Shown here: piece by piece, positions 1 through 5,280 of the stretch | Numbering within the stretch: position 1 is the stretch's first letter | How the letters are laid out: every line of letters begins with the position of its first letter | NCBI RefSeq assembly: GCF_054482525.1 | Contig: NZ_CM137006.1 | Reading direction: 5' to 3' (one strand) | DNA: 64,000 nucleotides | Made by a program: the position numbers and the translations under genes | Notes under the pieces: model-generated | What the model was told of the DNA's origin: nothing | Seen by the model: the letters and a program-made list of their open reading frames with translations, nothing else | The model's database searches: none

Positions 1-603
1 GTTAATCGCCGCAATGCCATCTGCGCCGCCGCGCTTCGCCGCCAGCGCCACTTCGCACATATCACCGATATTCGGCGTCATCTTCGCCAGCATCGGCAGC
101 GTGGAACCCCGTTTCACTGCCCGACAATATTTTTCTACCAGCTCCGGGCTTTGCCCGACATCGCTACCCATCGCATGAGAAGTCATTTGCGGACAGGAGA
201 AGTTACACTCGATCATATCCGCGCCAGCTTCTTGCACCAGGCGCGCCAGCTCTTCCCACTGCTGCTCATTTTCCCCCATGATTGAAGCTATCAATACTTT
301 GTCCGGGTAATCTTCCTTCAGCCGACGCAGGGCGGCCAGATTCTCTTCCAACGGATGTTCAGCAATCTGCTCCATATTTTTGAAGCCGATAAAACCGGTA
401 TCTTCTTTCACCAGATGATCAAAACGCGGCGAGACTTCGTTGGCGATAAAAAAACCGATCGTTTTAAACACCACGCCACCCCAGCCTGTGTCGTAGGCTT
501 TGGCACACATCTCATAGCAGTTGCCTACCGGCGAAGAAGAGAGGCAGAACGGGTTGGGAAACTTCACGCCGCAAAAAGTAATCGAAAGATCTTTCGTTAA
601 CAT
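1..603 (-). CDS. preA: NAD-dependent dihydropyrimidine dehydrogenase subunit PreA, N-terminal part (gene runs off window start)
   Basis: Minus-strand translation from CAT at 601-603 reads MLTKDLSI..., matching the recalled PreA N-terminus; start overlaps the preT stop (597-599) by 7 nt; not in ORF track because truncated by the window edge. Confidence 0.85.
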
Positions 604-1835
604 GAGCAAGCTCCCTCTAAATAGTGATGAATCGCCTCGGCGGCTTCTTTCCCGGTTTTCACTGCATAGACCACGGTTTTGTCCCCCTCAACAATATCGC
701 CAGCAGCAAAGACTTGCGGGTCGCGGGTCTGGTAATTTTGTGTTTTGATGGTGTTACGCTGCGGCTCTAACTCCGCAAAGGCATCCAGTCTGGCATGCTG
801 ACCGACGGCGAGAATAATTTTATCTGCCGCCATCGTCAGTTCGCCCGGTAACCGTACATGCTTAAACGTGACTTTATTGCCTTCCACGGCTACTGGCGTG
901 AATCCATCGATGATCGAAACGCCCAGCTCCCGGGCGCTGGCAAACTCTTTTTCGCTTGCCGGAAACTCATCTAACTCTTCACGCGCTACGCAAGTTACTG
1001 CCTGACAGCCGAGAACTTTCAGCGTGCTGGCTACGTCCATCGCGACATCACCGCCGCCGATAATTAATGCGCTTTGTGGAATGCTGATATCGCCTTGCGC
1101 CTGTCGTGCACGATGCAAGAAGTCGACGGCAATCTCAATGTCGCTATGCTCAAACAGTGGTAGCCCCGAACCGCTTGATAACCCCACGGTGACCAGTACC
1201 GCGCGGTTTTCCGCTTTCAGTTGCTCCAGGGTGAGTGTTTTACCGATTTCGTTATTGCACTTAATGGTCACGCCCATTTTTTCAATACGGGCGATTTCTG
1301 CATCCAGTACTGATTGCGGTAACCGGAATTGCGGAATGCCGTTACGCAACCAGCCACCGGCTTGTGCTTCTTTCTCATAGATCGTGACGTCATAACCCTG
1401 GTTTGTCAGTGTCACACTGGCCTGCAATCCGGCAGGACCCGCGCCAATAATGGCGACTTTGCCGAGCGTTTTAGTACCGGGTTGATAAATTTCCATCCCA
1501 GTTTGTTGTTCAAAATCAGTAACAAAACGCTGTAAGCGACCGATATCAATGGGAGTATCAACACCGGCACGGGTACAACCGCTTTGGCATAATTTCTCCG
1601 TCGGGCACACTCTGGCACAAACGGCACCGAGGGCATTATTTTCGCGAATTGTCTCGGCAGCGCCTTTAAAATTACGAAAGTAGATTGAGCGAATAAATTT
1701 CCCCGGATCGGTCTGTGCCGGGCAAGCCTGACTACAGGGAGCGTCGTGACATAATAAGCAGCGAGAGGCTTCTTTAATCGCCAGTAACGGTGTAAAAGCC
1801 GGAGTGAGTTCATCCAGATAATTTTGTTGCGGCAT
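597..1835 (-). CDS. preT: NAD-dependent dihydropyrimidine dehydrogenase subunit PreT (FAD/NAD-binding, Fe-S cysteine clusters)
   Basis: 412-aa ORF; Cys-rich motifs ([16 protein letters not shown]) and GAGPAG dinucleotide-binding motif; recalled identity to E. coli PreT/YeiT. Confidence 0.93.
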
Positions 1836-1927
1836 GTGATCTTCCTTAATGCTATGAGTAATTAAGGCGAACGCTAAATAAATATTGCGTGCTGATATTA
1901 AGGCTATGCGCGTGGGGAAATTTAAAC

Positions 1928-1943
1928 TGTGAAAGGATTCACA
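1928..1943. promoter_or_regulatory. CRP-like site TGTGA-N6-TCACA upstream of preT
   Basis: tgtgaaaggattcaca, a perfect match to both CRP half-sites, about 90 bp upstream of the preT start. Confidence 0.45.
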
Positions 1944-2028
1944 AATAGCTGCGGTTCAGAATGTTATATCCGCAGCTTATTGAGTGAAGTAATAATTATT
2001 CTCAATAATTAACAGAAAAGAGAAAATA

Positions 2029-4024
<1,996 letters not shown>

Positions 4025-4083
4025 GGCGTTGCCTCATAATCATGTAATGGGATAACAGTTTACGAACCCGTTATGGCTTTATA

Positions 4084-4149
4084 TGTGATCTGAATCTCAT
4101 TAATTATGCAACGCGTGAAACTTACATCAAAAATGCGCGACGCATCGCA
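4084..4149 (-). promoter_or_regulatory. cdd promoter with tandem CRP sites (CytR/CRP-regulated)
   Basis: CRP-like sites tgtgatctgaatctca (4084-4099) and tgcgcgacgcatcgca (4134-4149) about 50 bp apart upstream of cdd; matches the known cdd promoter architecture. Confidence 0.6.
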
Positions 4150-4153
4150 AATT

Positions 4154-5280
<1,127 letters not shown>

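Follow-up and report, generated by a model that had tools for sequence, protein, structure and literature searches.

A conserved CRP site upstream of the Escherichia coli preTA operon and its probable class II placement

The TGTGA-N6-TCACA palindrome in the spacer between yeiS and preT of Escherichia coli is very likely a functional CRP activator site of preTA, for which binding has been reported in vitro by others and activation is what we infer. The spacing that this box keeps to a hexamer downstream of it suggests that the preTA promoter probably belongs to the class II CRP promoters, with the box centred at -41.5/-42.5. Control of preTA by CRP had been proposed in a sequence-only reading of the same DNA, and that proposal is supported by an activator row in RegulonDB, by a genomic SELEX peak and by conservation of the box in 26 of 26 syntenic loci. 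The site is not novel, because it is already catalogued in RegulonDB and has been recovered in the genomic SELEX data set. What we add here is a phylogenetic footprint, together with a probable correction of the promoter class, namely class II at -41.5 as against the catalogued -57.5.

The window, that is, the whole stretch of 64,000 nucleotides analysed here (contig NZ_CM137006.1), is 100% identical to E. coli strain PCN033 over positions 1-4200, where the gene order is cdd-sanA-yeiS-preT-preA with all genes on the minus strand (Table 1). The box sits within the 193-bp yeiS-preT spacer, 93-108 nt 5' of the preT ATG and with its centre 100 nt from it, in agreement with the earlier estimate of about 90 bp upstream of preT.

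Table 1. Features of the preTA upstream region and neighbouring genes (window coordinates unless a locus is named)
Feature	Position	Strand	Basis or remark
cAMP-CRP binding site, gene-strand sequence TGTGAATCCTTTCACA, centre 1935.5	1928-1943	-	Sequence, uniqueness, conservation; RegulonDB/SELEX (K-12 allele)
Candidate -10 hexamer TAGCCT (TAnnnT) of a putative class II CRP-dependent preTA promoter	1901-1906	-	Fixed spacing across loci; -10 function predicted
Predicted transcription start, C1894/A1893	1893-1894	-	7-8 nt after TAGCCT; anchored alignment
Region homologous to the K-12 b2146 mRNA 5' end; candidate -10 CAATAT at 1882-1887	1875-1887	-	Published 5' end; CRP centre near -60.5 in the window allele
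5' leader block CCTTAAT-N10-ATTAAGG, overlapping the Shine-Dalgarno AAGGAAG; preT ATG follows at 1835-1833	1841-1868	-	(Nearly) invariant across genera
Hairpin AGCTGCGG-N15-CCGCAGCT, directly upstream of the CRP box	1948-1978	-	Folding; compensatory change in E. albertii
ERIC-like insertions	L004 ~2815-2985 (Escherichia sp. EC7003); L005 ~2850-2985 (E. albertii); L007 ~2915-2985 (E. coli E69)		
preT (yeiT), NAD-dependent dihydropyrimidine dehydrogenase subunit, 412 aa, first gene of preTA	597-1835	-	ORF; RefSeq annotation, PCN033
preA	downstream of 603	-	ORFs and RefSeq annotation, PCN033
yeiS	2029-2268	-	RefSeq annotation of the identical PCN033 region and ORFs
sanA	2271-2990	-	RefSeq annotation of the identical PCN033 region and ORFs
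cdd	3140-4024	-	RefSeq annotation of the identical PCN033 region and ORFs

The 16-mer, tgtgaaaggattcaca (also given as TGTGAAAGGATTCACA), matches the canonical CRP-N core at 10 of 10 positions, TGTGA and TCACA standing inverted across a 6-bp gap with position 4 a G and position 13 a C. With both strands of the 64 kb searched, it is the sole zero-mismatch occurrence of TGTGANNNNNNTCACA (TGTGA-N6-TCACA), for which dinucleotide-preserving shuffles give a mean expectation of 0.05 perfect matches, with at least one match in 5 of 100 shuffles. The earlier description of the site as a perfect consensus holds for the two pentamers only, which are exact: against the wider 22-bp consensus, AAATGTGATCTAGATCACATTT, both half-sites read TGTGAA instead of TGTGAT and the flanks are ATT/GTT instead of AAA/TTT, a moderate fit. 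The poorer fit of the outer positions is compatible with many real CRP sites. On inspection, two other readings of the box were rejected, as its half-sites are TGTGA/TCACA and not the TTGAT/ATCAA of an FNR site or the TGCGA/TCGCA of a CRP-S site.

Conservation of the box was followed in a PreT genome scan, which gave 19 syntenic loci from species representatives of Escherichia, Citrobacter and Pseudocitrobacter, and in look-ups of more distant PreT proteins from Pluralibacter, Kluyvera, a multi-species Enterobacteriaceae protein, C. amalonaticus and a lineage of 82% identity. Together with K-12 and the window itself, these make up 26 syntenic upstream regions. The perfect TGTGA-N6-TCACA is kept in every one of them, across at least five genera, in the midst of flanks that have diverged on either side and are largely unalignable between genera, and it is also retained in genera that do not have yeiS. 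Upstream of a distant preT homologue (L030, 66% identity), TGCGATCACGATCACA is found, followed after 20 nt by TATGCT. An atypical contig labelled Salmonella enterica (L023) has no CRP-like box upstream of preTA within positions 1-1500; there, preTA lies downstream of a pertactin/autotransporter gene and not of cdd-sanA-yeiS, and the upstream region is GC-rich and unrelated. Since the locus in this other context is without the box, we conclude that the box travels with the cdd-sanA-(yeiS)-preTA context.

Within E. coli the promoter region exists as two major alleles. The window allele of the 66-bp promoter core was found in 3937 of 5426 complete E. coli genomes (at least 95% identity) and the K-12 allele in a further 1475. 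The two cores (window 1885-1950 and L002 3918-3983) have no 28-nt word in common; most of their differences fall within the 21-nt spacer or around the end mapped by RACE, and the box pentamers and TAGCCT are unchanged. The K-12 and window boxes themselves are one spacer base apart, with TCTTTT in K-12 and TCCTTT in the window.

CRP control of this operon has a record in databases and in genome-scale studies. Table S4 of Shimada et al. (2011; PMC3105977) reproduces the RegulonDB row for yeiTA, with CRP as activator at -57.5 and the sequence TGTGAATCTTTTCACA (site ECK120035029, interaction ECK120035030). Table S3 of the same work gives a cAMP-CRP genomic SELEX-chip peak at 'yeiS> / >yeiTA', at 2.23195 Mb and with the box TGTGAAAAGATTCACA, and Table 1 has yeiT as a RegulonDB CRP target found again by cAMP-CRP genomic SELEX. 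Before that, PhyloScan (2007; PMC1794230) had placed b2146 among the top 20 Crp-significant intergenic regions, at ranks from 4th to 12th with E. coli and S. typhi alignments. The catalogued site lies at the same locus (yeiS-preT), has the same box and is annotated as an activator site, and the SELEX peak falls in the same place; the difference is that the window strain has the second of the two major E. coli alleles, whose 21-nt interval is altered at several positions. Our search of the literature on preT, preTA, yeiT, yeiA or b2146 together with CRP or cAMP returned Shimada 2011, PhyloScan 2007 and an unrelated sigma-factor SELEX list only, and crp-mutant, cAMP, EMSA or footprint data on the preTA promoter were not found in the searchable literature. 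preT is not mentioned in some of the CRP ChIP-exo, delta-crp and gold-standard supplements that were searched, and two papers on drug metabolism by preTA (5-fluorouracil) make no mention of CRP, promoters or glucose control.

The case for class II placement rests on what lies downstream of the box. When the loci are aligned with the box as anchor, the hexamer TAGCCT is the only set of conserved columns downstream, and the intervening 21 nt have diverged. In the window TAGCCT begins 22 nt after the box, a gap of 21 nt. The same gap is present in 25 of the 26 loci (20 nt in L021), and TAGCCT itself is likewise present in 25 of 26, being replaced by TAGGCT at the standard gap in L028, so that hexamer and 21-nt gap occur together in 24 of 26. 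Unlike this gap, the stretch between box centre and ATG varies in length among loci, from 91 to 271 nt. TAGCCT agrees with TATAAT at three of six positions and has the three key -10 positions (TAnnnT). With the hexamer T at -12, the CRP centre takes the class II position, -41.5, and a Y-A-G motif lies 7-8 nt after TAGCCT in eight of eight genus-level representatives in the anchored alignment. The arrangement of box, about 21 nt and -10 hexamer that marks class II geometry is thus present at preT. The sole published 5' end lies 54.5 nt downstream of the centre and not at the 41-42 nt that class II would predict, which lowers the class II claim without overturning it, the mapping method having given no proof of a primary end. 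A sigma-70 consensus scan of the gene strand of the spacer called no promoter, an outcome that is expected for an activator-dependent promoter. In K-12 TSS-seq data no start was seen near either candidate position, and the two reads present lie inside yeiS.

The neighbouring cdd promoter offers an internal control. When one mismatch is permitted, the 64-kb window yields a single extra match, at 4084-4099. This is the CRP-1 site already known at cdd, of class II type at -41.5/-42.5, and it reads TGAGATTCAGATCACA on the gene strand. This box is separated by 21 nt from the cdd -10, TAAACT, which is the same gap as at preT. Both promoters therefore have a CRP box, exactly 21 nt and a TAnnnT -10 (TAAACT at cdd, TAGCCT at preT), and both serve genes of pyrimidine salvage or catabolism that lie on the same strand 2 kb apart. 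The preT box is the stronger of the two, with a core match of 10/10 as against 9/10. The two differ in what accompanies the box: a second CRP site, more distal, and CytR operators are present at cdd, and neither is detectable at preT. Upstream of cdd CRP-1, in the stretch 4100-4155, a distal TTTGCGATGCGTCGCGCA site and a CytR-like word, GTTGCATA, can be seen.

The main competitor of the class II reading is the architecture in the catalogue, in which CRP would sit at about -57.5 in K-12 or -60.5 in the window allele, transcription would start some 44-47 nt upstream of the ATG from a -10 reading CATTAT/TACATT (K-12) or CAATAT (window), and CRP would contact alpha-CTD as in class I. We regard this as rather unlikely. 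It has on its side the catalogued -57.5 itself, which rests on the b2146 5' end that Mendoza-Vargas et al. (2009; PMC2760140) placed by 5'-RACE at -47 from the ATG ('Tttactaaacgctcgccttaa'), as well as the window allele, where the homologous start would place CRP at around -60.5, not far from the canonical -61.5. By our computation the -47 end corresponds to K-12 position 2233986 and gives a CRP centre of -54.5, and a start at the A at 2233989 gives -57.5. Activation by CRP follows helical phasing, with activating positions such as -61.5 and -71.5, and -54.5 or -57.5 would be half a helical turn off. Set against the class I positions (-61.5, -71.5, -82.5, -92.5), K-12 has -54.5/-57.5 and the window about -60.5 by homology, and the spacing varies across genera: the distance from box to start differs between the E. 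coli alleles and by at least 7 nt in Citrobacter. There is also no conserved -10 near the RACE end, and in three Escherichia lineages ERIC-like insertions lie exactly at that end. The RACE procedure, moreover, could not separate primary from processed ends, and its authors state that 5'-triphosphate ends were not verified by their method (PMC2760140). In comparison with lac P1 (class I, -61.5), the likeness is that a weak promoter is preceded by one CRP site, which in the window would lie at about -60.5 should transcription really start at the RACE end; the difference is that at preT the spacing to any downstream -10 in a class I frame is not conserved and that K-12, at -54.5/-57.5, is off-phase. 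It is because of the off-phase positions, the unfixed spacing, the ERIC-like insertions and the unverified triphosphate ends that we favour class II over the catalogued geometry. Under class II, the RACE-mapped end would have arisen by processing or would mark a minor start that does not depend on CRP. The fuller statement, in which the catalogued preTA start (44-47 nt before the ATG) is a processed end or minor start and the conserved promoter is of class II with an unusual, invariant -10, TAGCCT, is one that we put forward tentatively.

The remaining explanations accept less of the preTA connection, or add to it. CytR and CRP might form a nucleoprotein switch as at cdd, making preTA responsive to cytidine as well as cAMP. 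The function in pyrimidine catabolism, the presence of cdd 2 kb away and the TTTGCAT/TTGCG-like words that non-Escherichia genera have 55-65 nt upstream of the box would suit such a switch, which we nevertheless consider improbable, as the stretch 1836-2100 holds neither a second CRP-like site (at up to three core mismatches) nor an octamer like GTTGCATT (at up to one mismatch), and the probable terminator hairpin takes up the place at which a distal CRP site would be expected. A co-regulated CytR-CRP promoter, with two CRP sites in tandem at a distance of about 52-53 bp and CytR octamers (GTTGCATT) between them or alongside, was accordingly rejected for window 1836-2100. The palindrome could also bind CRP with no output on preTA, being a 'parked' high-affinity site, a roadblock or terminator aid for the upstream unit, or part of an antisense promoter. 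Many of the sites that CRP binds have no detectable effect on transcription, the box adjoins the probable yeiS terminator hairpin, and the left half can join an extended stem; on the antisense side, the plus strand carries an extended -10-like element, TGTTATATC (TGtTATATC), 21 nt from the box, which is class II spacing. The fixed spacing to a downstream TAnnnT across genera nevertheless points to preT, the box is kept where yeiS is missing, and the plus-strand element has decayed in K-12 (GATATC) and is lacking from other genera, so that an antisense promoter through TGTTATATC, unconserved even in K-12, was discarded and the explanation as a whole appears very improbable. That the palindrome arose by chance and binds no protein is hardly credible: 5 of 100 window shuffles do give one perfect match, but the box stands in 26 of 26 loci amid diverged flanks and has been bound in published genomic SELEX.

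Regulation of preTA would then proceed as follows, with class II activation as its most likely mechanism. When glucose is scarce, cAMP would rise and a CRP dimer would occupy the 16-mer, activating transcription of preTA. The box, centred at -41.5/-42.5, would overlap the -35 region and act by class II activation, the weak but invariant TAGCCT (1906-1901) would serve as the -10, and transcription would start near A1893 to give a leader of about 60 nt. Reductive pyrimidine catabolism, and with it the inactivation of 5-fluorouracil, would come under catabolite control alongside the neighbouring cdd.

PreTA is the dihydropyrimidine dehydrogenase of E. coli; it inactivates 5-fluorouracil and shapes the efficacy and toxicity of capecitabine in mice, and according to the preTA/5-fluorouracil papers its expression is higher under aerobic than under anaerobic conditions. 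With a CRP operator that is strong and conserved, PreTA activity should vary with diet and carbon source, which is a practical matter for microbiome pharmacology. Catabolite control of bacterial 5-fluorouracil inactivation as such follows from the existing database entry and is no discovery. If the class II reading is true, there would be essentially no preTA expression in the absence of cAMP-CRP, and the carbon supply would act as a switch on the inactivation, by gut bacteria, of 5-fluorouracil and the metabolites of capecitabine.

Directly upstream of the box lies a hairpin that is probably the terminator of sanA-yeiS. The region 1936-2031 folds at -22.3 kcal/mol (z -4.65), and E. albertii has a compensatory CTGTGG/CCACAG pair in the hairpin. 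A simple terminator scan missed it because its T-run is weak. If the hairpin does end the sanA-yeiS unit, preTA would form a transcription unit of its own. The left CRP half-site can lengthen the stem by pairing with the upstream TTCACTCA. An Rfam search of the intergenic region gave a PrrF match of 19 bits, far below the gathering score of 90, and this was set aside.

On the other side of the promoter, the inverted repeat in the leader is nearly invariant from Escherichia to Kluyvera. No RNA switch is claimed at this position, as the predicted hairpin over the Shine-Dalgarno sequence folds no better than shuffles (z 0.30). The word GCCTTAA is also found within or adjoining the TAGCCT block. 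The invariant inner GCC of TAGCCT hints at an extra or different constraint, for example from another protein or sigma factor, and taken with the repeat that overlaps the Shine-Dalgarno sequence it could reflect a second regulator or a sigma-S preference at preTA. Three Escherichia lineages have ERIC-like insertions of about 68-170 bp in the leader, containing AAGTGACTGGGGTGAGCG, which is presumably the ERIC core. In all three the insertion is downstream of TAGCCT, with box, spacer and hexamer intact, and it leaves 169-271 nt between the CRP box and the ATG.

Further upstream, a short dyad lies 60-75 nt from the CRP box, at about 1990-2005 in the window and at equivalent positions in L009, L015 and L024-L027. 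It stays symmetric as its letters change between genera (AATGGTTACCATT, AATAGTTTCTATT, AATAATTATTAC), and the TTTGCAT/TTGCG-like words of the non-Escherichia genera are found near it.
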